A stretch of 26,209 bases of DNA from a virus, in the UHGV virus genome UHGV-0185026; one strand, written 5' to 3'. The position numbers and the translations under genes were made by a program. The notes under the pieces are model-generated. The model was not told where the DNA came from. It made no database searches and saw only the letters and a program-made list of their open reading frames with translations. Below, piece by piece: positions 9,506 through 25,622 of this stretch. Positions within the stretch are counted from its first letter, which is position 1, and the number at the start of each line of letters is the position of its first letter.

Positions 9506-11272
9506 ATGAACACCACACTGACACCCGCAGATCTCGATCCCCGTCGGCAGGCCATGCTGCTGTACTTTCAGGGATACCGCGTAGCCCGCATTGCTGAAAT
9601 GCTGGGCGAGAAAGTTGCAACCGTTCACAGCTGGAAAAAACGCGACAAGTGGGGTGACTATGGGCCGCTGGATCAGATGCAGCTCACCACCGCCGCACGC
9701 TACTGCCAGCTCATTATGAAGGAGCACAAAGAAGGGAAAGATTTCAAAGAGATTGACCTGCTGGCGCGCCAGTCTGAGCGCCACGCGCGGATCGGCAAGT
9801 TTAACAATGGCGGCAACGAAGCCGACTTAAACCCTAACGTCGCCAACCGCAACAAAGGCCCACGCCGTCAGCCGGAAAAGAATGTTTTCACCGATGAACA
9901 GATTGAGAAGCTGGAAGAAATCTTCCATTCCTCCATGTTCAACTACCAGCGCCACTGGTGGGAAGCCGGAAAAACCAACCGCATCCGCAACCTGCTGAAG
10001 TCACGCCAGATCGGCGCGACCTTCTATTTTGCCCGTGAAGCCCTGATTGACGCCCTGCTGACCGGACGTAACCAGATTTTCCTTTCTGCCAGTAAGGCAC
10101 AGGCCCACGTCTTCAAACAGTACATCATCGACTTTGCCAAAGAAGTAGAGGTGGAGCTGAAAGGCGATCCGATGGTGCTTCCCAACGGGGCCACACTGTA
10201 TTTCCTCGGCACCAATGCCCGCACGGCCCAGAGTTATCACGGCAACCTGTATCTGGATGAATATTTCTGGATACCAAAATTCCAGGAGCTGCGCAAAGTG
10301 GCTTCCGGTATGGCTATTCACAAAAAATGGCGACAAACCTATTTTTCCACGCCATCCAGTCTGACACACAGTGCTTATCCGTTCTGGTCCGGTGCGCTGT
10401 TCAACCGTGGGCGCAACAAAGCCGATAAGGTGGACATCGACCTGTCCCACAGCAATCTGGCCCCCGGCCTGCTGTGCGCAGACGGGCAATACCGCCAGAT
10501 AGTCACCGTGGAAGATGCGGTGCGCGGCGGCTGTAACCTGTTCGACCTCGACCAGCTACGCATGGAGTACAGCCCGGACGAATACCAGAACCTGCTGATG
10601 TGCGAGTTTGTGGACGATCTCGCGTCCGTGTTTCCGCTCAGCGAGCTGCAGGCGTGCATGGTGGACAGTTGGGAAGTCTGGACCGACTTTCATGCACTGG
10701 CGCTGCGCCCGTTTGGCTGGCGCGAAGTGTGGATCGGTTATGACCCGGCAAAAGGCACGCAAAACGGCGACAGCGCCGGATGCGTGGTGGTGGCACCGCC
10801 AGCCGTGCCGGGTGGTAAGTTCCGCATTCTTGAGCGTCACCAGTGGCGCGGGATGGACTTCCGCGCCCAGGCTGACGCCATCAAAAAACTGACCGAACAG
10901 TACAACGTGACCTATATCGGTATCGACTCAACCGGCGTTGGTCACGGGGTTTACGAGAACGTGAAAGCGTTTTTTCCTGCCGTCCGGGAGTTTGTCTACA
11001 ACCCCAACGTTAAAAACGCCCTGGTACTCAAGGCCTACGACATTATCAGCCACCGCCGTCTGGAGTTTGACGCCGGACACACCGACATAGCGCAGTCCTT
11101 TATGGCAATACGTCGCGCCACCACCGCCAGTGGCAACCGCCCGACCTATGAAGCCAGCCGCAGCGAAGAAGCCAGCCACGCCGATCTGGCCTGGGCAACG
11201 ATGCACGCACTGTTTAACGAACCGCTGCAGGGCGAATCCGCCAATACCAGCAATATTGTGGAGATTTTTTGA
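9506..11272 (+). CDS. P: Terminase large (ATPase) subunit gpP
   Basis: 588-aa ORF MNTTLTPADLDPRRQAMLLYFQGYRVARIAEMLG...; position and size match P2 gpP. Confidence 0.9.
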   Translation: MNTTLTPADLDPRRQAMLLYFQGYRVARIAEMLGEKVATVHSWKKRDKWGDYGPLDQMQLTTAARYCQLIMKEHKEGKDFKEIDLLARQSERHARIGKFNNGGNEADLNPNVANRNKGPRRQPEKNVFTDEQIEKLEEIFHSSMFNYQRHWWEAGKTNRIRNLLKSRQIGATFYFAREALIDALLTGRNQIFLSASKAQAHVFKQYIIDFAKEVEVELKGDPMVLPNGATLYFLGTNARTAQSYHGNLYLDEYFWIPKFQELRKVASGMAIHKKWRQTYFSTPSSLTHSAYPFWSGALFNRGRNKADKVDIDLSHSNLAPGLLCADGQYRQIVTVEDAVRGGCNLFDLDQLRMEYSPDEYQNLLMCEFVDDLASVFPLSELQACMVDSWEVWTDFHALALRPFGWREVWIGYDPAKGTQNGDSAGCVVVAPPAVPGGKFRILERHQWRGMDFRAQADAIKKLTEQYNVTYIGIDSTGVGHGVYENVKAFFPAVREFVYNPNVKNALVLKAYDIISHRRLEFDAGHTDIAQSFMAIRRATTASGNRPTYEASRSEEASHADLAWATMHALFNEPLQGESANTSNIVEIF

Positions 11273-12297
11273 TGGGAAAGAGTAAGAAGAACCGCACTGC
11301 GGCGACGAATCAGATCCAGCATAAAAACCAGACTTCAGCCGAAGCATTCAGCTTCGGTGATCCCGTTCCAGTACTTGACCGCCGCGAACTGCTGGACTAT
11401 GTGGAATGTGTTCAGACAGATCGCTGGTATGAGCCTCCCGTCAGCTTTGACGGACTGGCGCGCACCTTCCGCGCTGCCGTGCATCATAGTTCCCCGATTG
11501 CAGTAAAGTGCAACATTCTGACCAGTACCTATATCCCTCATCCGCTGCTCAGCCAACAGGCTTTTTCGCGTTTTGTGCAGGACTATCTGGTATTTGGTAA
11601 CGCCTACCTGGAGAAACGCACGAACCGATTCGGTGAAGTTATCGCCCTTGAGCCTGCGCTGGCAAAATACACCCGACGCGGGTTAGACCTGGATACCTAC
11701 TGGTTTGTGCAATACGGTATGACAACCCAGCCGTATCAGTTCACGAAAGGCAGCATTTTTCATCTGATGGAACCGGACATCAACCAGGAGATCTACGGCC
11801 TGCCCGGCTATCTTTCTGCCATTCCATCCGCCCTGCTCAACGAATCCGCCACGCTGTTCCGCCGTAAGTATTACATCAACGGTAGTCATGCAGGCTTCAT
11901 CATGTACATGACCGACGCCGCGCAGAATCAGGAGGATGTGAACAACCTCCGCAACGCGATGAAAAGCGCCAAAGGTCCAGGCAACTTCCGCAATCTGTTT
12001 ATGTACTCGCCTAACGGCAAAAAGGACGGACTTCAGATTATCCCGTTGTCAGAAGTCGCAGCGAAAGATGAATTTCTGAACATCAAGAACGTGAGCCGGG
12101 ACGACATGATGGCTGCACACCGCGTACCGCCTCAGATGATGGGAATTTTGCCGAATAATGTTGGGGGGTTTGGGGATGTGGAGAAGGCTAGTAAGGTATT
12201 TATGCGCAATGAATTGGTGCCCATGCAGAAAAGATTTGATCAATTAAACGACTGGCTTGAAATAGAAATAATTAGATTTAGACCATACGTACTTTGA
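11272..12297 (+). CDS. Q: Portal protein gpQ
   Basis: 342-aa ORF; the ATG overlaps the P stop (TGATG). P2 gpQ-like position downstream of P. Confidence 0.9.
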   Translation: MGKSKKNRTAATNQIQHKNQTSAEAFSFGDPVPVLDRRELLDYVECVQTDRWYEPPVSFDGLARTFRAAVHHSSPIAVKCNILTSTYIPHPLLSQQAFSRFVQDYLVFGNAYLEKRTNRFGEVIALEPALAKYTRRGLDLDTYWFVQYGMTTQPYQFTKGSIFHLMEPDINQEIYGLPGYLSAIPSALLNESATLFRRKYYINGSHAGFIMYMTDAAQNQEDVNNLRNAMKSAKGPGNFRNLFMYSPNGKKDGLQIIPLSEVAAKDEFLNIKNVSRDDMMAAHRVPPQMMGILPNNVGGFGDVEKASKVFMRNELVPMQKRFDQLNDWLEIEIIRFRPYVL

Positions 12298-12326
12298 ACA
12301 AAAACAATAAAGTTCAGACAGTAATT

Positions 12327-12359
12327 TATATGTGGCTACAAAAATAGCAGCCACATATA
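12327..12359. terminator. Perfect 11-bp stem hairpin between convergent Q and the SMC-like ATPase gene (possible bidirectional terminator)
   Basis: TATATGTGGCT...AGCCACATATA inverted repeat lying between the Q stop (12297) and the ATPase stop (12363). No strong U-tract, so rho-independent function is uncertain. Confidence 0.3.
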
Positions 12360-12362
12360 CAA

Positions 12363-14267
12363 TTACTCAATTATTTTCAATGAATAATTATCTGGCGAAT
12401 AATACTCACCAACAATATATTCACTCTCACTGTATTTGGGATTTATTTCAGATGTTGCAAATATCAACTGATAATCATGTTCATAACGTGAGCACTCATC
12501 AATTATTATTTCCTGTAAATTGTGACTCCGTTCTTTTTCCATTCCACCATCGTCGATCCCATCTAACATCATAAATCTTGGAAGTCGCATTGAGTGGTTC
12601 TCTATACTTGCTGAAAGTAGTGCCAAATGGAATATATGCCTTAATACTACAGCTGAACTTTCAGAAAAGTTCTTACTACCATTCACATAAACGCTATTAT
12701 CAGTAAAACTAAACTCCACACTTTCAGGAGACATAAACTCTTTTTGCAAAGGCAAATCTTCTTGTAAAAGCTCTTGTGCTATTGAGCTCACTGAAGCATA
12801 AATTTTATCTTTAAGAACTTCCTCTTTTTCTTCATAAAGTTCAATAAGATCATCAAGTCTATTTTTTTCCGCCTGAAGTTCATCGCGACGCTCTTGAAGT
12901 TCATTAATAACAACAATAAGCTTCTTATCTTCATAAGCTCTTTTTATTTCTTCATCAAGCCGTCCAATTTCCCTATATATTTTACCTACAGCTAACTCTT
13001 GCGGTGAAGACCAATAGTGTGACTCTTTGAAATAATCCTGTTCAAGCCTTTTTAATTCACTCTCAGCTAAAGGAACATCTCGCTTTAATCTTACCAACTC
13101 TTCTTTTCTTCTATCCATTAATTGAAGAGATTCTTTGATTTGAAGAGTTAATTCATTTTTCATTCTTAATAACTGATTTTCAGCTTTATCATCTAATTGT
13201 TCCACTTTACATAGATGACAAACATGATCATTATGAGCCTTATCTATTTTGGAAAGACAACTAGGGCAAAAATCAAAATTCATACTATCAAATATAGCAC
13301 GCGTTTCTCCAGACTGTTCTAAGTTTTTTAGCCGCTCATTTAATTCTGATATAAACATATCAGAATCTGAAATTTCAAAATCCAAAGATTGGATTTTATC
13401 TTTTAGGGAAGATAATTTCCTTTTAGCTTCATTGAGTTCCTCCCTGATAGTACCCATTCGTTTTTCAGAATCAGCCCCTTCTTCATTAGTTATAATAGCT
13501 CTATTTGTTAGTTTTACATTCTCAATAGCTCTCAATTTATTTAGATGCTTTATTTTCTCATCAATACCTTGTAAATCTGGAGCCTGTCCAGATCTACCTA
13601 ATACAGTAAAGATACTTTTTAATTCAGTAACTTTCTTTGTTAGTTCGGTCTCAACATCTCTTAAAGAAAGTTGTGCATTGTACAACTCATCATTATAAAC
13701 ACCACATAAGTATCCACCTACCGTCTCACGGGTAAGAGCATTATCAAATCTGTCAAATCGAAAAATTGGACTATGTAACGACGGCTGATCTGCATACAAG
13801 ACACGTAAAATCTGATGCAATGTCAAATTAGAAGAACCAGCACCTTGTGCCAAGGGCATTGATAATGCATTAAAAATAGCTTGGGTGAAGCTAATTTTAC
13901 TCTCAGTTCTCTTGAATGGGTATAATTCCCATTCGTGTTCCCCAGCATTCAAAGCCTTATCCATCGCTCCCCAATAAATATAAAGAGGTCGCATTTGCTC
14001 AATAGATATCTCTCGTTTAAAGCATGCTTTCTCATTATTGAGAAGCACTTCAACGATTGTTCTAGTGCATTTCAAAGCCTGTGGTTTCCACCTGATATTT
14101 TCAGCTCCCAATGAAAATGCCAGCATATCCATTATTGTAGTTTTACCAGAACTATTTCGCCCACGAATAATGTTAACACCTTTGTGGAATTCACAATCAA
14201 ATGCACGATGTCCGTGTTGAAAAACTGTTAATCTGGTTACAATAAGAGTAGGCTTAATAAGTGTCAT
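12363..14267 (-). CDS. SMC/Rad50-like ABC ATPase with long coiled coil and central Cys4 motif (Lamassu LmuB / ABC-3C-type ATPase candidate)
   Basis: 634 aa. N-terminal Walker A (GRNSSGKTT), C-terminal Walker B/D-loop-like FMMLDGIDDGG, and about 300 residues of heptad-rich E/K/L sequence with CPSC-x13-CHLC near its middle. AT-rich composition. Confidence 0.65.
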   Translation of the reverse strand: MTLIKPTLIVTRLTVFQHGHRAFDCEFHKGVNIIRGRNSSGKTTIMDMLAFSLGAENIRWKPQALKCTRTIVEVLLNNEKACFKREISIEQMRPLYIYWGAMDKALNAGEHEWELYPFKRTESKISFTQAIFNALSMPLAQGAGSSNLTLHQILRVLYADQPSLHSPIFRFDRFDNALTRETVGGYLCGVYNDELYNAQLSLRDVETELTKKVTELKSIFTVLGRSGQAPDLQGIDEKIKHLNKLRAIENVKLTNRAIITNEEGADSEKRMGTIREELNEAKRKLSSLKDKIQSLDFEISDSDMFISELNERLKNLEQSGETRAIFDSMNFDFCPSCLSKIDKAHNDHVCHLCKVEQLDDKAENQLLRMKNELTLQIKESLQLMDRRKEELVRLKRDVPLAESELKRLEQDYFKESHYWSSPQELAVGKIYREIGRLDEEIKRAYEDKKLIVVINELQERRDELQAEKNRLDDLIELYEEKEEVLKDKIYASVSSIAQELLQEDLPLQKEFMSPESVEFSFTDNSVYVNGSKNFSESSAVVLRHIFHLALLSASIENHSMRLPRFMMLDGIDDGGMEKERSHNLQEIIIDECSRYEHDYQLIFATSEINPKYSESEYIVGEYYSPDNYSLKIIE

Positions 14268-14754
14268 ATCTATACTCCATAAGTTTAGTTCTAGCCTTCA
14301 ATCCATCAGGTCCAGTCAGATGAAATTTAGCCATCTTTTGTGTAATGAAAGATGAAAACGGTTCTTTGCGCTCTAAAAAAACGCCCATTTCTAAGGCTAG
14401 GTTCAGTGGTAATTGTTTATTTGTTCTTGAGACAAAACCATTGCTGAAATCATCAGAATCAATATAACCAGTCGCAAGCATACATTTTAGTGCTGCATCC
14501 TGTATTTGACGCATTTCCTTGAAAATAATCCTTGGACTCAATGGATCATGATATTCATTATGATGTAGTTTTGCTGTTTTTTTAATTTTAATAAATTCTC
14601 TCGGCATTTTCACTTCACTTAATAACGCAGGAAATAAAATGTAAAAATCCAATATTTTAAGCTTATCAATCTCAAGCCGATTTGTATTTTCCATAATTGC
14701 CATCATTCTAAATAGACAATGATAGGCATCATATGCTGGATGATAAACTAACAT
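14254..14754 (-). CDS. Hypothetical alpha-helical protein, translationally coupled partner of the SMC-like ATPase
   Basis: 166-aa ORF; its start overlaps the stop of the upstream gene (ATGTTAG) and its stop overlaps the ATPase start by 14 nt. No recognisable catalytic motif. Confidence 0.6.
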   Translation of the reverse strand: MLVYHPAYDAYHCLFRMMAIMENTNRLEIDKLKILDFYILFPALLSEVKMPREFIKIKKTAKLHHNEYHDPLSPRIIFKEMRQIQDAALKCMLATGYIDSDDFSNGFVSRTNKQLPLNLALEMGVFLERKEPFSSFITQKMAKFHLTGPDGLKARTKLMEYRYDTY

Positions 14755-15359
14755 TTATCCCACCTTATATAACAATTTCCGCCTAAAAAATACAACAGTC
14801 CCAAAAGATCCTTTTCGGATAAGTTTAACAAATTATCGCCCAACATTTCACTAATATTTTCTAATACCAATGAAATTTTTTCATCAACAATTACTCGGTC
14901 CTCATCCTTCTGAATAAGAGGTATAATTTTGAGCATAAAATCAGCATGAATTTTATCAAGAATAAACGCATATATTTCTTGTGCGGTTTTGGAAGATTGG
15001 CACTTCATTATCGCCTTGAGGGCTTGCTCTTTAAGAGCAGTTGCAAAGTAAATTAATTCAGTTCTATCACTATCAGTTAGCTTTGTAGCTAAATCTCTTA
15101 TATCTGGATTGGTATCCGAGGCTAAATAGTGCTTTAACTTATCACAAAAATCCTGCCCCCCCATAGTTCCATCTTCTTGAGAGAACTTTTGGTACAAACG
15201 CTCTAAAGTTCGATTACTACTACGAACTATATTGGTAATGTGGTTTGTTTGACTCCCTCCAACAATACTCCCATTTCTTACTCTATTACCTGATTGCTCC
15301 TGTTTACTAAACACACCAATCACTCCCTTAGTGAGAATTAGTCTGATCTCTACCGACAA
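14748..15359 (-). CDS. Hypothetical protein, second gene of the SMC-like ATPase operon; true start probably the in-frame GTG near 15314
   Basis: ORF of 203 codons from a TTG. An AAGGGAG ribosome-binding site overlaps the stop of the upstream small gene, about 8 nt before an in-frame GTG. The N-terminus carries an NGSIVGxxQTN motif. Confidence 0.55.
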   Translation of the reverse strand: MSVEIRLILTKGVIGVFSKQEQSGNRVRNGSIVGGSQTNHITNIVRSSNRTLERLYQKFSQEDGTMGGQDFCDKLKHYLASDTNPDIRDLATKLTDSDRTELIYFATALKEQALKAIMKCQSSKTAQEIYAFILDKIHADFMLKIIPLIQKDEDRVIVDEKISLVLENISEMLGDNLLNLSEKDLLGLLYFLGGNCYIRWDKC

Positions 15360-15510
15360 TGCTTCCGTTTGTCACTGTATTTCCATTTTGAATGGGAGAA
15401 CTTTGGTTCATACAAATTTGCTTTACTTTGTAATTATACACATTGAAAGTAATAGCCCAACTGATACCCGCCCCTGCCAAAAAACTAATGATTTCGCTTA
15501 AGTATTCCAT
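15328..15510 (-). CDS. Small single-pass membrane protein (about 60 aa), first gene of the operon
   Basis: ATG preceded by a GGAGG ribosome-binding site; hydrophobic helix IISFLAGAGISWAITFNV. The C-terminal NGSIVGRDQTN motif is repeated in the next gene. Confidence 0.45.
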   Translation of the reverse strand: MEYLSEIISFLAGAGISWAITFNVYNYKVKQICMNQSSPIQNGNTVTNGSIVGRDQTNSH

Positions 15511-15597
15511 AATGCCTCCAACAGAATGATTTACGGACAATTCTAATTGTGAAACATCATATTTAACAAGTTCTCAAATAAAACCTAATACGCGCGC

Positions 15598-15616
15598 TCG
15601 TATCCCCGCCACGCCT
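15598..15616 (-). other. Candidate cos (cohesive end) site
   Basis: The minus strand reads GGCGTGGCGGGGATACGAG followed by CGCGCG. As recalled, P2/186 cohesive ends are GGCGAGGCGGGGAAAGCAC and GGCGTGGCGGGGAAAGCAT; the first 13 nt match the 186-type end. Orientation points toward Q, as in P2. Confidence 0.3.
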
Positions 15617-15886
15617 GCCCGCTTTATATAGTGGTTTTCATGCACCTGCATGACATAAGCAAAAGCCCGCCATACCTAGCAGGCCCCAACTAGAGCGATC
15701 CTTAAACGATCATGCGGATTCATGCAGTATAGACATGCAGTAGTTACGCCAAACCGTGTAGCGAGGCCACCTGCTAAAAATGTTCACGGAGTAACATTTG
15801 ATCTCCACTGCAAAAAATGAAACTTTCGCTTTCACCAAATATAACAAGAGGTAATCTTTGGTGTTTTACACAGCAAACGGTGAGCC

Positions 15887-16468
15887 ATGAAAGTCAACAT
15901 AAAACAGATTGTTGGAAATTGGGAATTAGGTCTTGCGATGGATAAACACAGCATCCGCAGCATTCCCATTGGTTACGATGAGTGGGGACATATGCGGTTT
16001 GAGACGGAGCGTACTGAGGTAGGCGAATCTCTTTTCCAGCTTAAATACCGTGACGATTGGTCACAAGTTAAGCCTTTAGCCCAATGCCTAGCAGAGCATG
16101 CCTTTCCTCATTTCAGCAATGTCGGGTTTATCGTTCCAATGGCTGCATCTAATCAGCGTGCACGCCAGCCAGTGACCGAAATAGCTCAGGAACTAGCCAA
16201 ACTAGTTGGCAAACCATGCTTCGATGACCTCTTGTTGAAAGCCCCCGGCGGGGCATCGCTAAAGAACCTGAATACAAAAGAAGAGAAAATCACGGCGCTG
16301 GGTAATTCGTTCTCTGTTAATGACAGTATTGAGAATAATGGCAACTGGAATGTCCTTATCATTGACGACCTCTACCATACAGGCGCATCTATGGAGGCTG
16401 CTTGTGCTGTGCTAAACGATTATACTAAGGTTAGAAGCATTTATGTTGCAGCTTTGACTTGGAGATAG
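15887..16468 (+). CDS. Phosphoribosyltransferase (PRTase)-domain protein, ShosT-like candidate
   Basis: 193 aa with the PRPP-binding signature NVLIIDDLYHTGASMEAA near the C-terminus. First gene of a two-gene plus-strand module in the cargo island. Confidence 0.7.
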   Translation: MKVNIKQIVGNWELGLAMDKHSIRSIPIGYDEWGHMRFETERTEVGESLFQLKYRDDWSQVKPLAQCLAEHAFPHFSNVGFIVPMAASNQRARQPVTEIAQELAKLVGKPCFDDLLLKAPGGASLKNLNTKEEKITALGNSFSVNDSIENNGNWNVLIIDDLYHTGASMEAACAVLNDYTKVRSIYVAALTWR

Positions 16469-16470
16469 TG

Positions 16471-17028
16471 ATGACTACGGTATTTGTTGCTGGTTCAATA
16501 ACCATCAAAAACCTTGACACACTCATCGTGGATCGTCTGAAAAAAATTGTTAACTCGCGTTTTCGTATTGTAGTTGGTGATGCCAATGGTGTTGATTCAT
16601 CTGTTCAACGCGTATTGCTAGAACTTGGATGTGAAAAAGCCACAGTATTCAGTAGCTCAGAAAAACCGCGCAATAATCTTGGCTCATGGCCTGTACATGT
16701 AGTAAGTACTAGCCATGCAGCCGGCACTCGCGCGTTTTTCACTGCGAAAGATCTCAAAATGGCAGAAGAAGCCGATTATGGATTAATGGTTTGGGATACG
16801 AAGAGCACGGGTACTCTGAGTAACGTGATTGAGCTTCTTAAACGTAAAAAATACTCTGTCGTTTTTGTTAATAAATACAAAAAGTTCTTTATTATCAAAT
16901 CTCCAGAGCACCTTGACGCTTTGATTAACTGCATGTCACCAGCCTCTTTGGAAAAAGCTGATGAAAAGATCAGATTGCGCGAAAAAATCAACCAACTAAA
17001 AAACGAGCAAATCCAGATGTTTATGTGA
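16471..17028 (+). CDS. DprA/Smf-like (SLOG-type Rossmann) protein, ShosA-like candidate
   Basis: ATG two nucleotides after the PRTase stop, with a GGAGA ribosome-binding site. N-terminal VFVAGS...IVVGDANGVD pattern resembles the DprA Rossmann-fold motifs. Confidence 0.55.
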   Translation: MTTVFVAGSITIKNLDTLIVDRLKKIVNSRFRIVVGDANGVDSSVQRVLLELGCEKATVFSSSEKPRNNLGSWPVHVVSTSHAAGTRAFFTAKDLKMAEEADYGLMVWDTKSTGTLSNVIELLKRKKYSVVFVNKYKKFFIIKSPEHLDALINCMSPASLEKADEKIRLREKINQLKNEQIQMFM

Positions 17029-17117: not shown

Positions 17118-17351
17118 TTAATGCAGCCAGCTGTCGTCTTCCCACACCTTCTGCATAATTTTCATCACTTGTTTTCTTTCTTCGTCCAGTTGCAGTCCGG
17201 TCAGTTCCACACCGTTAGAGCTACCTTTTCGGATACGAATTACCGTTTTGGGATACAGGGGGCGCAGATTGCGGTAAAGCTCGGATTCAAGGGCGTCCAG
17301 GGTAGACTGGCTAATCTTCTGCTCTTTATCGATCATTATTTCAATGCGCAT
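17118..17351 (-). CDS. DinI-family protein (damage-inducible protein I-like)
   Basis: ORF 17118..17423; start placed at MRIEIMIDKEQ..., preceded by a GAGGTGA ribosome-binding site. The 77-aa product matches the DinI pattern (MRIE..., acidic C-terminus WEDDSWLH). Confidence 0.75.
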   Translation of the reverse strand: MRIEIMIDKEQKISQSTLDALESELYRNLRPLYPKTVIRIRKGSSNGVELTGLQLDEERKQVMKIMQKVWEDDSWLH

Positions 17352-17361
17352 AAAAGTCACC

Positions 17362-17550
17362 TCAACTGATGACATCCATTGAGCGGTTGTATTCGTGAGT
17401 TCTGATTTTTGCCATGAGTTCATCAGTCAATTCAGAAACCCACTGCAGGGCCAGCCCCTTCTCTTCATCACTACACTCACTAGCCGCTACAAGCTTAAGA
17501 AAAAAATCAATGCGCTGGAGCTTCAAAGACTCCAAAAAATAGTCCTGCAT
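17362..17550 (-). CDS. Small protein upstream of the DinI-like gene, possible Tum-like antirepressor
   Basis: 62-aa ORF with a strong AGGAGG ribosome-binding site, about 40 nt downstream of a LexA-box-like palindrome. Its position corresponds to the 186 tum operon downstream of A. Confidence 0.35.
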   Translation of the reverse strand: MQDYFLESLKLQRIDFFLKLVAASECSDEEKGLALQWVSELTDELMAKIRTHEYNRSMDVIS

Positions 17551-17590
17551 CTTTCCTCCTATGACACCAAAGCAATACTGTATACATAAC

Positions 17591-17610
17591 CACTGTTTAT
17601 ATTTACAGTA
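17591..17610. promoter_or_regulatory. LexA (SOS) box CACTGTTTATATTTACAGTA
   Basis: CTGT-N8-ACAG with an AT-rich spacer, matching the LexA consensus at about 17 of 20 positions. Located in the promoter region of the small-protein/DinI-like operon. Confidence 0.6.
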
Positions 17611-17702
17611 TATAATAATCTTACTGATGTAAAACGTTTTTTTACGCTCATCAGCCTGATATGCCTGGTATTATTAAGAGCACGAATTGTTAACCCGCGT
17701 AA

Positions 17703-20117
17703 TTAATACAGGTTTCGCCACTTATCATCTTCCTGCAAACGCTGGTTCCGATAGAAGATACGCAGGCCTGCTCCTGACGGAATACTGCCTCCGCGAAGCA
17801 GTAAATCGACCTCTTTCTCGCTGCCATCAAATCCCCTGGACTTCAGTTCATACACGAGCTGCAGTCGCTGATGGTCTGTAATTCGCTGTTTGTAGTCTTT
17901 ACGCCGTTTCGGTTTCACCAGGCGTAACCTTGCTGCCAGTTCCCGGCGCTCTTTTTTGCTCATACTGTGCAGGTAATCGTGCAACTCCTTGTCATCCATG
18001 CGGGTGATATCCGTTCTGGTATCTCCATCAGCTGATTTGTCTTTCCCTTGTTGGTACAAATTTTCAGCAAGGGGACAGTTATTGCCACGAGTCCAAGGGG
18101 CGCAAGCGCCCTGGTCGGCTGCCGCCTCCTGAACGTCAACGGCTTTACGAACCATTTTCCACTTCACTGCATGAGTGCAGATCTTGCCCTCTGCAATGGG
18201 TGACCAGATGCCATAAATACGAATGCCGTGATCGCCATAGGCGGTCGGCTCTTCGTTGATTTCATAAGCGGTTCTGATGAGGTGATATTTACGGGGAACC
18301 AGTACGCCGCCCTGCTTCATGATGTAGGTGGCAAAACAACCAGCATCAGCAGCAGCCAGAATGGCATCAAGACGCGGGTTATCCAGTACCGGCGCACCTG
18401 CTTTTTTGTCACCCTGTTGCCTTGCCGCCTGACCAGCCAGCAAGCGAAGTTCACGGTAAGCCTGACGCCCCGGAATACCAAAGAAGCGGAATTGCTGAAC
18501 ACGATGCAGAGACGCCCAGGCATTCACGTATTCAGCGTTATCACGCAGAGATTTACCCGTTTCCTTGCTGATCTCGCCAGCCAGACCACGACCGTCAATG
18601 TTCTTACTGATATATTTCGCGATGTAGCTTGTCGGCGTTCCTTTGCGCGGGTTAATCAACTCAGACTTAAAGCGCGGCCCAGTGTTATTGCCCAGCTCCT
18701 CGCGGTCTTCACGGATGGCAAACTTACGCAGTAATGCAGTGATGGCACGGCGGTCTTTTTTGCGCATGAAACACAACAGGTGCCAGTGAACTGTGCCATC
18801 ATGATGCGGCTCAGCCACCCGCACGCCATACCAGCGCAACCCGGCTTTGTGCATCGCCTTACGAAATGCAGCAAACATGCCGACCAGATAATCGCTGCTT
18901 TGTCTTACCGTCGCGTTTGTCCAGGTCGGGTTTGGTCTGCCGTTATTTAGCGTGGAATGGAAACGCGACGGACAGGTGATAGTGTAGAAAACGGCGCAGT
19001 CACCGCGCATTTCCGCGATAAGCTCCAGACCTTTAACACAGGCCATCATCTCATTGCGGCGATGCGCAGGGTTGCTGCTGCTGGCGTTTACCACATCCTC
19101 CATGTCCAGCGTGTCGCCGTCTTCGTTCACCAGTTCATGAGAACGGAAAAACTCCAGCGACTTACGGCGCTGCTCACGTTTATGCATCACGGCTTCATAG
19201 CTGACATAAGGAGATGCTTTTTTGCTGACCAGGCAAACAGCGCGCAACTGCTCTTCCCGCCATTCGCAACGCATCTTCCATAATTTCCGATACCACCAGT
19301 CGGCGCACAACATACGCGCCAGCGAACCCGGAATGAGTTCATAGGGCACGGGTTTACGGCGGTTTCTTTTCCGACGAAGTTTCTCAAACGCAGGCGGGAT
19401 AACATCCAGACGCAGGGTTTCCGCAGCCACCTTTTCCCATGTCTTGCGGATTTCTTCTGGCTTAACGTCATCGGTGGCGTACAAATCACCACAAGCGGCC
19501 TCAAGACACATGCTCATATGCGCTGCTACCAGGGTGGACAGGCGTTTCACCTGATCCTGGCTCATTTCAGGCAGGATCAGCAGCCCCTCCAGTCCTTGAT
19601 GGCTTGCCATAAAACGGAAAGAAACAGATAGCTGACTGTCACGTACACAATCCAGTCGCTCCAGACATGGCTTAATCGTCTCACGCAAATAGCGGGAATA
19701 AGCCTTTGGCCTGCCCAGGCTGCTGAAGTATTCGATACGTTGCATCAGCGGCTTGCTGATATGAGAAGGCTGGGCGCTGACATCTGCCAGAATGACCATG
19801 TCCGGGTTAAAACGCTGCTGCTCATGCGCCAGCTTTGCCCGGCTAATGAGCTTATCCTGCTCCATTTCGCGCTGGACAGGATCACGGGATTCATTAAAGA
19901 AATAACGCTCCCAGACCTGCTCACTCAGTGCCTCGCGGCGCAGTTGTTCCTGCTCGTTATCGGCAGCGTACAGAGTGATCAGGTTTGAAAGTGCAGACTC
20001 CGGCGCAACTTCCGCCGGATCCAGATAAGGGTTAATGGCCTTTTTCGGGCCGTTCCATGAAAATGCTGCGGCAGCCTCGTTAAAGCCGCTAGAGTTGCTC
20101 ATATCGTCATGACTCAT
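17703..20117 (-). CDS. A: Replication initiation endonuclease gpA (rolling-circle initiator)
   Basis: 804-aa ORF containing [12 protein letters not shown] and HHDGTVHWH-type motifs characteristic of P2 gpA-family initiators. Confidence 0.9.
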
Positions 20118-20971
20118 ACACGCACCTCGTACACAGCAAAACTATCCACGCCACGCGAAGGATCAAATCCCATCCAGCAGCGCGACCCGGAAACAGCAAT
20201 GATTTCTGTTGCAGATTTACTCTCGCCAGCTGACACGCCGATGCTGCGTTTTGCCTTGATGTAGTGGTGAGTGAAATTGCGATACAGCGAACGGATCAGG
20301 GATGTGTCACTGTTAGAAACAATGACCGGATGACCTTCTGATGATCGATATTCAAGAACGGATGCCAGGTGATACTGGTCATCTTCAGTGAAGCCGTCAG
20401 TGTGATAACCGGAAAACGTGCCGTCATACGGCGGATCGCAATACACCACATCCCCCGCCTTCAACATCGCCAGCGTTTCATCAAAGCTGGCGCAGATAAA
20501 CGTTGCTCGCTGGGCCTTTTCTGCAAATGCGCGAATTTCTTTTTCAGGGAAATACGGATTTTTATAATTACCGTAGGGAATGTTGAAATGCCCGCTCTTG
20601 TTATAGCGACATAAACCACGGTAACCGTGACGATTGAGATACAGGAAATATACCGCTTTCATGAAATCAGTAATTTCAGTTGAGTAATTAAACTCCTGCC
20701 TTATGTTGTAATAAGCTAGATCACTGTTTGCTTCCTCAAACAAAGTTCTGGTCCGCGATATAAACGCCTCGCAATCAGCGGCAATCTTTTTATAGAGGTT
20801 GATTAAATCAGGATTAATATCCGCAACCAGATAGCTGGGGTAATCCGTCTCCATCATCACAGCACAGGAACCCGCGAAAGGTTCAACCAGTCGCGGGCCA
20901 GCAGGTAGGTATTTTTTCAGTTCGGACATAATTGCGGTTTTATTTCCCGCCCATTTCAGGATGGTGCTCAT
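20114..20971 (-). CDS. dam: DNA adenine methyltransferase (Dam family, GATC-type)
   Basis: ORF 20114..21031; start placed at [11 protein letters not shown]. Contains [33 protein letters not shown] and DPPY motifs, near colinear with E. coli Dam. Its stop overlaps the A start (ATGA). Confidence 0.85.
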
Positions 20972-21195
20972 ACAGCACCTCCGTTGTAATGTTTGCCTTT
21001 CAGCTCTGCGATTTCCTGACAGGTAATGCAAAGCTGCACTCCAGGAATGGCACGGCGGCGTGCTGGCGGAATTGGTGCTTCACATTCAATGCAAAGCACG
21101 CGAGACACGCCCGGTGTTTTGGCACGGGCAGCACGGATATGGCGCTGGCGTTCTTCTTCAACGCGCTGCTGTACGAGATCCATTGCATCAGCCAT
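20968..21195 (-). CDS. TraR/DksA-family C4 zinc-finger protein
   Basis: 75 aa with CIECEAPIP...CITCQ (Cys4); its stop overlaps the Dam start. Confidence 0.7.
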   Translation of the reverse strand: MADAMDLVQQRVEEERQRHIRAARAKTPGVSRVLCIECEAPIPPARRRAIPGVQLCITCQEIAELKGKHYNGGAV

Positions 21196-21434
21196 TAGTG
21201 GATCTCCTGCGCTTCGTTCTGGATTGCTTCAGCGGTCACACGCAGCAGTTCTGCTGCTTCGACGTGGTTTAGCTGGCGGGATGTGATATGACACGCCAGG
21301 CTATCAAGGCGGGCAGCCATTGCCTCAGCCCTTGCCCGACGTTCTTCAAGTCGGGCCTCTGTCAGTAAAAGATTAAGACCTGCATCATCCGGTCCGGTTT
21401 TAGTCGTGAGGGTTTCAATATTACGCATAATCAA
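21195..21434 (-). CDS. Hypothetical early-region protein
   Basis: 79-aa ORF whose stop overlaps the start of the TraR-like gene by one nucleotide (TAATG); small charged helical protein. Confidence 0.5.
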   Translation of the reverse strand: MIMRNIETLTTKTGPDDAGLNLLLTEARLEERRARAEAMAARLDSLACHITSRQLNHVEAAELLRVTAEAIQNEAQEIH

Positions 21435-21495
21435 TTCTCCTGAATTTAGATAAAGGGATGCCCGGCGGGTTTACGCCATGAATTTTATTTATTGG

Positions 21496-21837
21496 TTAAT
21501 TCGGCATGGTTAGCCGTCTGGGAAATAAGCTCACCACTGCACGAAAATGATTCATTGCTTTAATCAACTCCCGCTTTTCGTCAGTGGTCAGCTCATTAAT
21601 GCTGATGCTATGACGTTCAGCTGGAATTTTTGCCATAAAGAATATGGCAGCCAGTGCTCGTTTATTTTGTTCGTTATTGATATCCCGTGGATCACGCATA
21701 TCTTTAATAAACCGCTCAAGCTCTGACTCAATATTCAGGCCAAATACTTTCGCCCTTAACTCCGCAATGTGATTAAGTCCATTCAGGCGTTCACCGGGGC
21801 TTAATGGAACAGTCGCCGCAGCGCCATTAATTGCCAT
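21496..21837 (-). CDS. Hypothetical early-region protein
   Basis: 113-aa ORF in the early leftward operon between cII and A; no recognisable motif. Confidence 0.45.
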   Translation of the reverse strand: MAINGAAATVPLSPGERLNGLNHIAELRAKVFGLNIESELERFIKDMRDPRDINNEQNKRALAAIFFMAKIPAERHSISINELTTDEKRELIKAMNHFRAVVSLFPRRLTMPN

Positions 21838-21859
21838 AATTCATATCCCCAAAACGCAA

Positions 21860-22084
21860 CTATCGTTCTTTGTTCTTACGGTAACGTTCAAGAGGAGATA
21901 CATTTTTTCGTATCGTTTCTTTAACCTGCTCTCCCCGTAAAAACGTCCCATCCCTTAGCGTGAAAAAGTAACTGCCATGGCCCGACAACGACGGATAACA
22001 ACAGAGCAAATCATCTTCAGGTACTGAATAACTCTCCCCTCTGTAACGAAACTGATAAACCACTTCACTTTCCGCTGCATACAT
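21860..22084 (-). CDS. Hypothetical small early protein (competes with the overlapping alternative ORF 21955..22281)
   Basis: 74-aa ORF with an ATG start; it overlaps a 108-aa ORF in another frame, so only one of the two is likely real. Confidence 0.3.
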   Translation of the reverse strand: MYAAESEVVYQFRYRGESYSVPEDDLLCCYPSLSGHGSYFFTLRDGTFLRGEQVKETIRKNVSPLERYRKNKER

Positions 22085-22258
22085 TTTGACTTTCTCCGTT
22101 TCCTCGTGGTCAATTCAGACAGCAATTCATCTTGTGAATGACATGGATGCCAGCGTTTACCATCCTCACCCATGATCCAGCCGTGACCGTAGTGCATTGC
22201 CGGGCTTTGTTTTACCAGCAGCGATGCAAATGATGGTTCTTTCGTCAGCATAAGCACC

Positions 22259-22774
22259 TCACAGCAAACCGAATGAAGCACCGAGGCCAGTCACGGTATC
22301 AACTGCACTCGCCATCGCAGGATTAGCCTGTAAACGGGCCTGCAATGAAACAGCAGCCAACGCCATCAGTCGTGTAACAGAGTTAATGCTGCTGATCGCA
22401 TCACGACGGCCTGCACTGGTTTTTACATCGCCAGATACCGCACCTGCAGCAACACGCCCGATCTCTGCGGTTGCACTCATGACGTAATGTGGCAGTTTCT
22501 CTTTTGCCACCTCATTAATCGGTACACATGGCAGACAATGAATCTGTGCCAGAAAACCATCTACCAGCGTTGAATCTTCAGTCAGATCGGTAAGCAGCCA
22601 GATTTCTGGTGCGGTTAATAAATGAGGTTGAGCTGGGTTCAGCTTGTTCCGCAGAATCTGCACATTCATGCCAGCACGTTCTGCCAGTTGCACCAGGTTG
22701 TGGCGCAATGCGAATGCACGACAGGCTTCATCAAAATGTGGATGTTTGGAAACTTGGTAATCAAACATGGTCAA
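22259..22774 (-). CDS. cII: CII-like lysogeny-establishment regulator (phage 186 CII family)
   Basis: 171-aa [29 protein letters not shown]...[25 protein letters not shown]...GASFGLL, which I recognise as closely resembling the 186 CII pattern. Confidence 0.75.
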
Positions 22775-22800
22775 TGCCTCTGATGTATCTCAGAATCGAA

Positions 22801-23022
22801 CTAATTAAGGTTTAGATTGCATTCTGAAAGCGCATCAACGGTCATTGCTGCTATGTTGATCATCACTTTTTCGCGTTTTTTATCTTTGCGCAGACGGTGA
22901 CGGATAAGGCGTCCATCAGCCAACATGTCATTGATGGTATCGATGGATAGCCCTGTCAGCTCGCTATAGCGTTCAATAGTCACATGAGGCGTGGTAAGAG
23001 TGATTGAAATGTTAGGTCTCAT
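22801..23022 (-). CDS. apl: Apl/Cox-type excisionase and lytic-switch regulator
   Basis: 73-aa helix-turn-helix protein, first gene of the leftward early operon, divergent from cI. Confidence 0.55.
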
Positions 23023-23147
23023 GATGCAACATTCCTCGTTTAATGATGATTAATCAGGACGAATACGGATCGTTTGTATTTTGTGAACACCATAAACATA
23101 CGATCGCACAGTGAAATCGTCAAGATAAAAGTTCACTTGGAGTGACC
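23023..23147. promoter_or_regulatory. Lysis-lysogeny switch region between divergent apl and cI (expected face-to-face promoters and operators)
   Basis: 125-bp intergenic region between the divergent regulators; contains short repeated ATACGGATCG/ATACGATCGC elements with GATC sites. Individual promoter hexamers were not resolved. Confidence 0.5.
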
Positions 23148-23717
23148 ATGAATTTGGAGAAAGGCGGACGAGGCGCTATAGAGCGCATGGTAGAAGCTTA
23201 TGGATTCAAGACTCGACAGGCGTTGTGCGATCATTTAGGAATCTCTAAAAGTACACTCGCCACACGCTACATGCGTGACTCATTCCCAGCAGAATGGGTA
23301 ATCCAGTGCGCCCTTGAAACAGGCACCTCGCTTAATTGGCTCACAACCGGGCATGGTTCAAAGCAAACTTCAGGTAATACAAATACTATGGAAGTTGCTA
23401 AATATGTATTATCTGATGGGGCCTTGTGTGAAGACGGTTTTTATATTTTCGATAGAGAATTTCTACCGTCGACATTCAAGAATCTTTTTGTAATCACAGA
23501 TAATAATTCTGAATTTATTTGTGATAAGGAATTTGATGATATACGTGATGGTAAATGGGTAATAAGTATTGATGGCGAAATAACGATCCGTGACATTACT
23601 CGTTTACCCGGTGGAAGAATCTTCGTCGAGGGTGGAAACAGAGCCTTCGAATGCAAGATAGAAGACATTGAAATAATTGGTAAAATTATAAGTTTAACAG
23701 TCAAGTATGTTAAATAG
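23148..23717 (+). CDS. cI: CI-like immunity repressor (186 CI family)
   Basis: ORF 23142..23717; ATG at 23148 preceded by a GGAG ribosome-binding site. N-terminal helix-turn-helix (LCDHLGISKSTLATRYMR) and the ALETGTSLNWLTTGHG segment match the 186 CI pattern. Confidence 0.8.
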   Translation: MNLEKGGRGAIERMVEAYGFKTRQALCDHLGISKSTLATRYMRDSFPAEWVIQCALETGTSLNWLTTGHGSKQTSGNTNTMEVAKYVLSDGALCEDGFYIFDREFLPSTFKNLFVITDNNSEFICDKEFDDIRDGKWVISIDGEITIRDITRLPGGRIFVEGGNRAFECKIEDIEIIGKIISLTVKYVK

Positions 23718-23732
23718 TACCGGGAGGAAATT

Positions 23733-23924
23733 ATGCTTGGTAAGGTATTTTTTGTGGTTTTGTCATGTTCTTTGTTATTAAACCCACTAGCTACCTATGC
23801 TAGAAATTATCCCTGCTCAGGGAAAAAGGGAGGTGTTTCTCACTGTACCTCTGATGGCAAATTCGTTTGCAATGATGGAACTATTAGTAAATCCAAAAAA
23901 ATCTGTACTAAAAACTCACGATAA
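23733..23924 (+). CDS. Small secreted or lipid-anchored Cys/Lys-rich protein (candidate lysogenic-conversion moron)
   Basis: 63-aa ORF with a strong GGGAGGA ribosome-binding site, an N-terminal signal peptide ([18 protein letters not shown]) and a mature part with four Cys and many Lys. Lies between cI and int. Confidence 0.5.
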
Positions 23925-24112
23925 CTTTTGCTTTTATATCTGCGCCTAAAATAAAAATGAGCCACAGGTTAACCGCAAAAGTTACATGCTCACATAGCAA
24001 AAAGAATAGCCTACTTCATTATGGCTTCAGTGAGATGTATGGTCGCAGGATTTCATACATTGACACTGGTTATACATACAGTAAAAATGCTCTCTATTGG
24101 AGGGCATTTTTT

Positions 24113-25144
24113 ATGGCTGTACGAAAACTCACCACAGGAAAATGGCTTTGCGAATGTTACCCCGCCGGACGTAGTGGGCGTCGTGTGCGTAAACAATTCG
24201 CCACCAAAGGCGAAGCACTGGCTTTTGAGCGTCACACGATGGAAGAAACCGAAGCAAAGCCCTGGCTGGGTGAATCAGTGGATCGTCGAACACTGAAAGA
24301 CGTGGTTGAGCTATGGTTCAAACTACATGGTAAATCACTGACTGCTGGGCAGCATGTCTATGACAAATTGCTGCTGATGGTTGACGCTCTGGGCAATCCC
24401 CTTGCAACTGATCTCACATCTAAAATGTTTGCCCACTATCGAGATAAACGCCTGACAGGTGAGATCTACTTCAGCGAGAAATGGAAGAAAGGAGCAAGCC
24501 CGGTCACCATTAACCTGGAGCAAAGCTATCTAAGTAGTGTTTTTAGCGAACTATCCCGCCTGGGCGAATGGTCGTATCCGAACCCACTGGAGAACATGCG
24601 AAAATTCACCATCGCAGAAAAAGAGATGGCATGGCTTACCCATGAGCAGATTGTTGAATTGCTGGCTGATTGCAAACGACAGGACCCAATTCTGGCACTG
24701 GTAGTTAAGATATGCTTAAGCACAGGCGCACGTTGGCGTGAAGCCGTAAATCTTACCCGCTCACAGGTGACCAAATACCGAATTACCTTTGTAAGAACGA
24801 AGGGGAAGAAAAACAGAAGCATCCCTATCAGTAAAGAGCTTTACGAAGAGATCATGGCGCTTGATGGGTTCAATTTCTTTACAGACTGCTATTTTCAATT
24901 TTTATCCGTGATGGAAAAAACGTCTATCGTGCTCCCTCGCGGTCAACTGACACACGTTCTGCGCCATACGTTTGCGGCGCACTTCATGATGTCGGGTGGA
25001 AATATCCTGGCCTTACAAAAAATTCTCGGGCATCACGATATAAAAATGACTATGCGTTACGCACATCTGGCACCGGATCACCTGGAAACTGCATTACGGT
25101 TTAATCCGCTGGCAACACTACCAACATCAATAGCAAGTTTTTGA
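24113..25144 (+). CDS. int: Tyrosine integrase (P2/186 Int family)
   Basis: ORF 23957..25144; start placed at MAVRKLTTGKW with a GGAGGG ribosome-binding site. C-terminal catalytic region HVLRHTFAAHFMMSGGNILALQKILGHHDIKMTMRYAHL. Confidence 0.9.
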   Translation: MAVRKLTTGKWLCECYPAGRSGRRVRKQFATKGEALAFERHTMEETEAKPWLGESVDRRTLKDVVELWFKLHGKSLTAGQHVYDKLLLMVDALGNPLATDLTSKMFAHYRDKRLTGEIYFSEKWKKGASPVTINLEQSYLSSVFSELSRLGEWSYPNPLENMRKFTIAEKEMAWLTHEQIVELLADCKRQDPILALVVKICLSTGARWREAVNLTRSQVTKYRITFVRTKGKKNRSIPISKELYEEIMALDGFNFFTDCYFQFLSVMEKTSIVLPRGQLTHVLRHTFAAHFMMSGGNILALQKILGHHDIKMTMRYAHLAPDHLETALRFNPLATLPTSIASF

Positions 25145-25202
25145 AAATGCGTATTTTGCCCTGTTGAGCTAATATTCTTTTTTTTCACATGGAGCACTAT
25201 CA

Positions 25203-25472
25203 ATGAATAAGTTTCAGCATCAGGGAGCGGAATTGCGCAACAGAGCCAAAGAATTGGCTTTATCCGTACTTAAAACTCACCCAGATGCCCAAAAAAACGG
25301 CAACGGCGTTAAGCAAGCTGAGGTATTTCGTCTAAGCGGCCTCGATTGGGGAGAAAAACGGAAAGCAACAAGTTCGAACCAACAATATTGGGTTGTTGCA
25401 CTATTGCGTGAACTAGAAGAGGAGGGGTTAGTCGAACAGATTGAAGATAGAGGCCCCTGGCGTCTAAGGTAA
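25203..25472 (+). CDS. Hypothetical small protein (possible winged-helix) at the prophage-host junction; phage or host origin unresolved
   Basis: 89-aa ORF with a GGAG ribosome-binding site, followed by a terminator hairpin. Confidence 0.4.
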   Translation: MNKFQHQGAELRNRAKELALSVLKTHPDAQKNGNGVKQAEVFRLSGLDWGEKRKATSSNQQYWVVALLRELEEEGLVEQIEDRGPWRLR

Positions 25473-25541
25473 AACAAGTGGCGACAAAGTGGCGGCAGCG
25501 GTTGGCATTACCCCGTAATAACCACCACTGACCACCAACCC

Positions 25542-25573
25542 AACTTATTGTTTTTACTCTAACTTATTGTTTT
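25542..25573. repeat. Two direct copies of AACTTATTGTTTT, 19 bp apart (possible att or Int arm-site region)
   Basis: Direct repeat seen between the int-side genes and the host TetR gene. Coordinates approximate. Confidence 0.3.
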
Positions 25574-25577
25574 CATT

Positions 25578-25606
25578 AACCCATTTACATAAATGGGTTT
25601 TTTGTT
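25578..25606 (+). terminator. Rho-independent terminator
   Basis: Perfect hairpin AACCCATTTAC-ATAAATGGGTT followed by a T-run on the plus strand. Confidence 0.5.
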
Positions 25607-25622
25607 ATCTAAAATTTATCTA

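Follow-up and report, generated by a model that had tools for sequence, protein, structure and literature searches.

The virus genome UHGV-0185026 was analysed as one stretch of 26,209 nucleotides (nt), here called the window. It carries a four-gene operon on the minus strand which is almost certainly a Lamassu system. Three of the genes encode LmuA, LmuC and LmuB. The first gene of the operon encodes a peptide of 60 amino acids (aa). The original prediction, which was made from the DNA letters without database searches, had mentioned it in passing as a tiny membrane protein. This peptide is a conserved fourth component of the operon, and it shares a co-evolving motif with the N-terminus of LmuA. 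The best reading of the locus is a prophage-borne short Lamassu which acts by abortive infection with a split effector. The peptide would be the membrane-acting part of that effector, coupled to LmuA by the shared homotypic motif; this is the role towards which we lean.

Three parts of the peptide are constant among its homologues: an acidic N-terminus (M-[ED]-...), a hydrophobic helix (aa 7-25 in the window) followed by Lys/Arg, and a tail which ends in a motif (aa 41-60, QNGNTVTNGSIVGRDQTNSH). The helix follows the pattern M[ED][YW]L[ST]xIxxF[LI]xGLxxGW..K or is an Ala/Ile-rich variant. Tail motifs include SQKNNxAGGDIVGGD and GDIAGRDI; in Enterobacterales the form is NGSIVGRDQTN. AlphaFold2 predicts a helix at residues 2-37 (predicted local distance difference test (pLDDT) score 75-81 for residues 1-30) and an unstructured tail. 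Because acidic residues precede the helix and Lys/Arg follow it, the peptide is predicted to sit N-out/C-in, with the motif facing the cytoplasm. The first 15 residues (MEYLSEIISFLAGAG, elsewhere MEHLSEILSFLGGL and MDYLSELVSFL) resemble the 'MEPIS' N-terminal helix motif reported for Bab, for Bell/Hell domains and for some antiphage NLRs; this resemblance is noted as a lead only.

The peptide has no match among Pfam, PADLOC or NCBIfam families, and the HeLo/Bell-type Pfam families give none at E<=0.1. In PHROGs it belongs to phrog_17975 (E=5e-9), a family of unknown function. RefSeq carries no annotation for the 60-aa open reading frame (ORF), and in a collection of 5.8 billion proteins the peptide is rarely called and is labelled 'hypothetical'. 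Among enterobacterial orthologues, the proportion of non-synonymous differences (pN) is 0.08-0.22 and that of synonymous differences (pS) is 0.59-0.77, which is near saturation; dS was computable for four of six pairs, and these give a ratio of the two substitution rates (dN/dS) of 0.05-0.17. These values point to a real gene under purifying selection and not to a chance ORF.

For the wider comparison, 57 distinct loci with a LmuA-like gene were used: the window, three loci reached via homologous proteins, and 53 which came from scanning a single genome of each species. The gene order LmuA-MC5-LmuB (MC5 being the type of LmuC found here) is kept in all 57. An ORF of 45-70 aa lies directly upstream of the short LmuA gene and is complete in 53 of 55 evaluable loci; it is partial in the remaining two, one of which is at a contig edge and one of which is probably frameshifted. 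Locus L038 was left out of this count, and L056 (from Azospirillum tabaci), whose LmuA bears an esterase domain, was counted separately. L056 has neither the upstream peptide ORF nor the N-terminal LmuA motif. The pairing of peptide and LmuA-like protein recurs in Gamma-, Beta- and Alphaproteobacteria, in a metagenome-assembled genome (MAG) of Bacteroidota and in a Firestonebacteria MAG. A reverse check from the peptide family placed all four sampled members directly upstream of a CTD9-MC5-ATPase set. We regard the peptide as very probably a genuine fourth component of the operon.

The motif at the C-terminus of the peptide matches one at the N-terminus of LmuA (EQSGNRVRNGSIVGGSQTNH, aa 6-25), which every LmuA-like homologue retains. 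The 43 locus pairs compared show this arrangement. In these pairs, the mean local-alignment score of peptide tail against LmuA N-terminus is 57.5 for cognate and 39.2 for non-cognate combinations, and none of 20,000 permutations reaches the observed cognate mean. The cognate mean is also higher than the mean among orthologous peptide tails (49.0) and among orthologous LmuA N-termini (41.3). Such clade-specific shared states are unexpected for paralogous motifs which have been independent since an old duplication, and therefore argue for co-evolution. The two motifs of the window agree at 12 of 19 residues, 10 of which are specified by different codons; constraint therefore acts on the protein. 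Recent duplication or gene conversion was rejected as the source of the likeness for the same reason.

Relative to average proteins, the motif is enriched in N (3.2-fold), G (2.7-fold), Q (1.5-fold), V (1.2-fold) and I (1.2-fold); L is reduced to 0.05-fold and P is absent. Bacterial amyloid signalling motifs (BASS) are rich in Q, N, G, V and I and poor in P and L (10.1101/2020.01.06.895854). The motif comes close to this bias, but the Lys depletion of BASS motifs has no counterpart here. In the AlphaFold2 models, pLDDT is low over the motif regions of both LmuA and the peptide, and secondary structure is absent there.

Among the sampled loci, the peptide and an N-terminal enzymatic domain are mutually exclusive, as seen at L056. 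This suggests that the peptide replaces the effector function. Alternatively, the peptide could be a membrane tether which anchors LmuABC at the inner membrane via the motif, for example near the point of phage DNA entry, and which is not a toxin. Defence would then be due to LmuB-LmuC, which would bind phage DNA ends and block them, or to an effector encoded at another locus. Peptide conservation, the co-varying motif and the predicted cytoplasmic tail fit a tether equally well; there is no enzymatic domain in the operon, and Lamassu senses DNA ends (PMC12663957). We nevertheless consider a tether unlikely. All other Lamassu subtypes have a cell-killing effector exactly where the motif sits; the exclusion at L056 suggests effector replacement; and cognate-specific co-evolution of about 20 residues is not obviously needed for anchoring.

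Lamassu components of the operon

The 634-aa LmuB ATPase matches the PADLOC LmuB profiles over nearly its full length (E=4.5e-43, 2.8e-42 and 6.9e-38), the best match covering residues 5-572. Generic models (Pfam AAA_23, SMC_N and AAA_15; Rad50) match it weakly. In PHROGs it is assigned to phrog_1637 (E=1.8e-204). The Walker A motif and Walker B/D-loop named in the original prediction were both located in the sequence (Table 1). In addition there is a Q-loop (YADQ), and two CxxC motifs lie midway along the coiled-coil region. When 54 LmuB homologues were aligned, these motifs proved to be kept: Walker A as GxNSSGK[TS]T, the Q-loop, both CxxC motifs, and the Walker B/D-loop as hhhLD[GN]-I-[ED]-D-[GK]-GM, where Asn is found in a distant clade and Gly otherwise.

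The 166-aa protein is Pfam PF20291 MC5, 'ABC-3C middle component 5', over its full length (E=2e-57; 194 bits, cut-off 25). It also matches the PADLOC LmuC profile (E=8.7e-4) and belongs to phrog_13252 in PHROGs. Its gene occupies the middle position and overlaps those of both LmuA and LmuB. The C-terminus of LmuA is Pfam PF20285 CTD9 (E=5e-30; 104.7 bits, cut-off 27.9), which covers residues 74-185 of 188. In RefSeq, the product name of both small proteins is ABC-three component (ABC-3C) system protein. The definition of ABC-3C, CTD9 and MC5 is said to come from Krishnan et al. 2020.

ABC-3C and Lamassu form one superfamily (PMC10586767). Taken with the LmuB, MC5 and CTD9 matches, this identifies the operon as a short Lamassu in the canonical order LmuA-LmuC-LmuB. 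It had been predicted to have a Lamassu or ABC-3C architecture with unusually small partners, and the profile matches agree. The further suggestion of an undescribed variant or a distinct system stands in part: the operon is a member of Lamassu and not a distinct system, and an effector-less clade has already been noted, but the conserved fourth component appears to be a new feature. Rst_3HP or another of the hotspot systems of Rousset et al. was rejected as an identity because the four proteins match only Lamassu parts in PADLOC.

Searches of Pfam, PADLOC and NCBIfam found no nuclease, Sir2, TIR, protease, lipase or other effector domain in any of the four proteins, as had been expected of the partners. 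No domain from these three collections lies N-terminal to CTD9 in LmuA (residues 1-73), and no PADLOC LmuA profile was matched. LmuA consists of an N-terminal motif region of about 25 residues and then a helical region which ends in CTD9. In an alignment of 18 LmuA sequences, the N-terminal motif and the C-terminal domain (CTD) are conserved; the AlphaFold2 model built on this alignment has residues 1-33 disordered (pLDDT <50) and the remainder helical. Profile searches had been proposed together with a fold comparison of the partners: the former placed LmuB, LmuC and the CTD9 domain of LmuA, but Foldseek returned no match for the LmuA model in the PDB at E<=0.001. Sequence searches of PDB chains with the ATPase, MC5 and the LmuA profile gave nothing significant, and thus no match to any solved Lamassu chain.

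The LmuA-like family has 568 representatives (at 50% identity) at E<=1e-3 and 442 at E<=1e-10. Among the top 150, lengths of 180-200 aa are almost universal. A large family of such uniform length argues for a stable LmuA architecture and not for truncation. One LmuA-like protein (P0130, 349 aa) has about 170 extra N-terminal residues, which have no Pfam match. A tblastn search with the LmuA-like protein gave no match in 50,697 phage records.

The CTD9 protein of L056 (L056:3969-5366) is 465 aa long and has an N-terminal DUF676 serine-esterase domain. Its CTD9 domain is clear (E=6.5e-29), and MC5-like and LmuB-like genes lie downstream. CTD9 therefore also serves a classical, effector-bearing LmuA. 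This Lamassu lineage may have been enzyme-bearing ancestrally, as L056 is.

A single frameshifted gene, reading from a transmembrane (TM) helix through the motif to CTD9, was considered and rejected: 30 database clusters, and nearly all of the top 150 representatives, have the LmuA-like protein as a separate protein of about 188 aa. Among the LmuA matches there was no natural TM-motif-CTD9 fusion, and the longer matches have over-called starts or other N-terminal domains. Frame breaks occur at two loci. In L047 (L047:4922-5143), the motif-bearing LmuA start is out of frame with the CTD9 part, and in L027 (L027:4751-4936), it is the hydrophobic part of the peptide that is out of frame. Each may be a frameshift, an assembly error or a decaying copy.

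It is very improbable that the operon is a non-functional Lamassu remnant, with its effector lost and the small ORF irrelevant, or that the ATPase is a housekeeping repair protein of the SbcC/Rad50 type. Either would account for the missing effector domain. A remnant would also fit the rarity of the operon in E. coli, where it is found at at least 99% identity in 4 of 5,426 complete genomes, and the lack of protection by one effector-less Lamassu variant in a screen (described below). Yet all four genes are intact and under strong purifying selection, they are conserved across several phyla, and the short LmuA has 442 representatives even at the stricter threshold. As to a housekeeping role, which had been named beforehand as an outcome that would undo the prediction, no nuclease partner like SbcD/Mre11 is present and the partners belong to families specific to ABC-3C. 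The location in a swappable phage cargo slot at a defence hotspot speaks against both.

Proposed coupling of LmuA to the peptide

In Vibrio Lamassu, one LmuA is held back by LmuB2-LmuC by way of the LmuA CTD (PMC12663957). The triggers are DNA ends and phage replication origins; free LmuA then tetramerises via the CTD, and its N-terminal domain is activated (PMC12663957). A comparable sequence of events can be proposed for the present system. The peptide would reside in the inner membrane, N-out/C-in, with its motif towards the cytoplasm. By analogy with Vibrio Lamassu, LmuA would be released when DNA ends or phage replication intermediates are bound and ATP is slowly turned over. Released LmuA would oligomerise via CTD9 and bring several N-terminal motifs together. 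The clustered motifs could then pair with the peptide tails by homotypic beta-interactions, possibly amyloid-like as in Bab/Agp and HET-S/NWD2. This would cluster the transmembrane helices, permeabilise or depolarise the membrane, and abort the infection.

The logic could also be inverted, as in a toxin-antitoxin pair: the peptide would be a toxin which is neutralised by the motif of LmuA held on LmuB2-LmuC, and which is freed on activation to form pores. Small hydrophobic peptides are common toxins. The peptide gene is the first of the operon and its translation is apparently coupled to that of LmuA, and the two motifs are matched and co-evolving. Activation of the solved Lamassu, however, yields free LmuA oligomers and not the destruction of LmuA; moreover, the single LmuA of each LmuB2C would have to keep in check a peptide whose translation is no less efficient than its own. 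We therefore hold this arrangement, like the tether, to be improbable, and favour a peptide which is recruited by released LmuA.

Within this favoured reading, amyloid templating is a tentative proposal for the coupling between LmuA and the peptide. The co-variation would follow just as well from a discrete beta-hairpin heterocomplex, and the amyloid analogy is partial because the peptide has no Bell/Babybell sheath domain. Several further points weigh against a split effector of this kind. Anti-phage activity, membrane insertion, toxicity and contact between peptide and LmuA are all predictions. In the enterobacterial peptides, the hydrophobicity of the helix is no more than moderate (Kyte-Doolittle mean of about 1.5 over 17 residues). 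Both AlphaFold2 models are of low confidence, with a mean pLDDT of 58 for LmuA and 66 for the peptide, and the fold search was empty. There is no acidic residue right after the Walker B Asp of LmuB (hhhLDG-I-[DE]-D), so that ATP hydrolysis may be slow or atypical; judging from the motif, hydrolysis may be very slow or the catalytic base may have shifted. None of 28 phages was resisted by a P4-borne 'Lamassu missing a known effector' (PMC13586616), which may differ from the present system in clade or in the small ORF. As to novelty, Krishnan et al. 2020 may already mention the small gene.

Operon layout and prophage context

The four tightly coupled minus-strand ORFs were confirmed, and they lie between the portal gene and the cos-like sequence of a P2/186-like prophage (Table 1). 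Their coordinates, the gene overlaps and the ribosome-binding site beside a stop codon are all as first described. The LmuA and MC5 genes overlap by 7 nt (ATGTTAG), and the MC5 and ATPase genes by 14 nt. The TAA stop of the peptide gene is directly followed by GGGAG, 6 nt and the GTG start of LmuA. This GTG is also the start chosen by PGAP/RefSeq in a 99% identical E. coli locus; the longest ORF for LmuA starts from TTG and encodes 203 aa. The longest ORF for the peptide gene likewise has a TTG start and encodes 70 aa. The prediction of an AT-rich operon was correct: G+C content is 0.30-0.39 over positions 12001-15500 and 0.52-0.64 in the structural genes.

Table 1. Coordinates of the operon, its motifs and neighbouring features in the window
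Feature	Positions	Strand	Basis
LmuB, short SMC/Rad50-like ABC ATPase, 634 aa	12363-14267	-	PADLOC, PHROGs, motifs
LmuC, MC5-type middle component, 166 aa	14254-14754	-	Pfam, PADLOC, PHROGs
LmuA-type adaptor, 188 aa, GTG start	14748-15314	-	Pfam CTD9, PGAP
60-aa membrane peptide, proposed split effector	15328-15510	-	GGAGG ribosome-binding site, ATG start, conservation
Longest ORF of the peptide gene, TTG start, 70 aa	15328-15540		
Peptide N-terminus, aa 1-15	15466-15510		
Peptide hydrophobic helix, aa 7-25	15436-15492		
Peptide C-terminal motif, aa 41-60	15331-15390		
LmuA N-terminal motif, aa 6-25	15240-15299		
LmuB Walker A, GRNSSGKTT, G36-T44 including K42	14136-14162	-	sequence
LmuB CxxC motif 1, CPSC, aa 334-337	13257-13268	-	sequence
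LmuB CxxC motif 2, CHLC, aa 350-353	13209-13220	-	sequence
LmuB Walker B/D-loop, FMMLDGIDDGG, aa 565-575	12543-12575	-	sequence
Candidate sigma-70 promoter, TTGTTA/18-nt spacer/TAGAAT, upstream of the peptide gene	15540-15569	-	consensus scan only
Inverted repeat ATATGTGGCTGC / GTAGCCACATAT, 12 bp, one mismatch, 7-nt loop	12328-12358		read from sequence
cos-like core GGCGTGGCGGGGA, boundary of the cargo slot	15603-15615	-	sequence present at position
Terminase	9506-11272	+	
Portal	11269-12297	+	
ComF-like gene and overlapping gene for a 189-aa protein	15887-17028	+	
DinI-like gene	17118-17423		
Replication protein gpA	17703-20117	-	
Dam methylase	20114-21031	-	
CI repressor	23142-23717		
Integrase	23957-25144		
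TetR-family gene, probably host DNA	25623-26189		

The promoter listed upstream of the peptide gene is a candidate from scans for promoters and terminators in which match numbers were not above those in shuffled sequence. The inverted repeat lies between the convergent LmuB and portal stop codons, and may form a terminator hairpin, perhaps a bidirectional one. It was not reported by the terminator scan because no T-run follows the stem.

Besides the terminase and portal genes, the prophage has genes for gpA and a Dam methylase. The 186-type remainder (17118-26189) also includes DUF5347 and CII/CP76 genes along with those for a DinI-like protein, the CI repressor and the integrase. The TetR-family gene at the end of the window is probably host DNA, and the attachment site should therefore fall near 25150-25620.

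The cos-like core has the sequence GGCGTGGCGGGGA, which we take to be the P2/186 cohesive-end sequence. The surrounding non-coding region (approximately 15566-15742) matches about 1,250 E. coli records as well as P2-like phages of Klebsiella, Salmonella and Yersinia, in each case with 80-90% identity. Megablast matches in phages are restricted to this region. In E. coli MEI005, the operon likewise lies between portal and cos, and a different gene (DUF6236) is found beyond cos. In E. coli D2, the slot between portal and cos holds an unrelated 778-aa AAA ATPase, and the gene pair of the window is found beyond cos. Two independently exchangeable cargo slots therefore flank cos, and the predicted cos-proximal cargo site is supported. 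Orthologous operons occupy the same slot in P2-like prophages of Pantoea and Edwardsiella. The slot is the gpA-gpQ defence hotspot of P2 phages (Rousset et al. 2022, PMC9122126).

The pair beyond cos consists of a gene for a 193-aa ComF-like phosphoribosyltransferase (PRTase) which overlaps a gene for a 189-aa protein. The former protein matches PADLOC ShosT (E=1.3e-8) and PsyrT (E=1.5e-7) and NCBIfam ComF (E=3.6e-5); the latter has a weak PsyrA match (E=0.019) and a Rossmann-like GDANGVD motif. From these matches, the second cargo looks like a DprA-PRTase (Shosta-like) system, a type validated in the P2 hotspot by Rousset et al. The pair is common in E. coli prophages which do not carry the Lamassu operon.

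Comparison with known systems

Roughly 10-15% of prokaryotic genomes contain a Lamassu. The present system resembles the other short (type II) Lamassu, such as Vibrio cholerae DdmABC/Vc-Cap4 and E. coli Ec-Lipase, in its LmuA-LmuC-LmuB gene order, its C-terminal docking domain, its SMC/Rad50-like LmuB of about 600 aa with a Walker A motif and a CxxC hook, and its location in a defence hotspot. It differs in that the N-terminus of LmuA is enzymatic in those systems (Cap4, lipase, Sir2 or protease), whereas here it is a motif of about 25 residues only. The Walker B motif of short Lamassu is reported as hhhhD[Q/S/T/E], whereas it is hhhLDG here, and the gene for the membrane peptide is an additional, fourth gene. 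The esterase-type system of L056 has the same CTD9 and similar MC5-like and LmuB-like genes, but has DUF676 in place of the motif and lacks the peptide.

Haudiquet et al. 2025 describe a 'clade O' of short Lamassu in which LmuA has 'seemingly lost the effector domain' while LmuC and LmuB are non-truncated; it includes more than 100 sequences from more than 40 species (PMC12663957). The present system fits this published description, which is the basis of the comparison. That such a clade is counted as Lamassu indicates that an enzymatic LmuA N-terminus is typical of the family and not obligatory. The text of that paper makes no mention of a small fourth gene, a transmembrane peptide or a shared motif. 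No paper linking Lamassu to a TM peptide or to signalling by amyloid or homotypic motifs was found in a search which did not extend to Krishnan et al. 2020. Membership of the Lamassu family and the effector-less clade are thus known already; the 60-aa gene and its shared motif appear to be new.

The link between Lamassu effectors and the SMC-like sensor is just beginning to be worked out, and one sizeable clade has been described as effector-less. An overlooked, motif-matched membrane peptide which is always present in the clade would give that clade a testable killing mechanism. If the peptide is the missing part, this would explain why such loci are called incomplete by automated tools, and cloned 'three-gene' versions may lack the effector. 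It is possible, though doubtful, that the 'effector-less' clade is still armed by way of prion-like templating, with a separate and routinely unannotated membrane peptide of 45-70 aa being switched on by an SMC/Rad50-type sensor.

The nearest parallels to such a relay are pairs of adjacent genes in which an amyloid motif templates the activation of a membrane-targeting protein: HET-S/NWD2, Bell/BASS-NLR and Bab/Agp (10.1101/2024.11.07.622273). The last of these defends E. coli against phages; its two proteins have a terminal amyloid motif in common, and its executioner targets the membrane (10.1101/2024.11.07.622273). In all three, including Bab/Agp (BASS11), a C-terminal motif of about 20 residues in the executioner corresponds to an N-terminal motif in the partner, as it does here. 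Bab/Agp is also similar in having a small executioner with an N-terminal hydrophobic helix, a Pro-free motif rich in N, Q, G, V and I, and a location in a prophage hotspot. There are also differences. The helical bundle which sheathes the membrane helix of Bell/HeLo executioners is absent from the 60-aa peptide, which has a single predicted helix and no Pfam match. In addition, the partner in the amyloid pairs is an NLR/STAND or TPR protein, whereas here it is the adaptor of an SMC-like DNA sensor. Were the coupling amyloid-like, amyloid signalling would extend from NLR-type receptors to DNA-sensing SMC machines, in the form of a very small and portable sensor-to-membrane switch. An amyloid-type relay fed by an SMC-family sensor would be a first, and would amount to a minimal counterpart, in bacteria, of HET-S/NWD2 and of RIPK-type necroptosis signalling.

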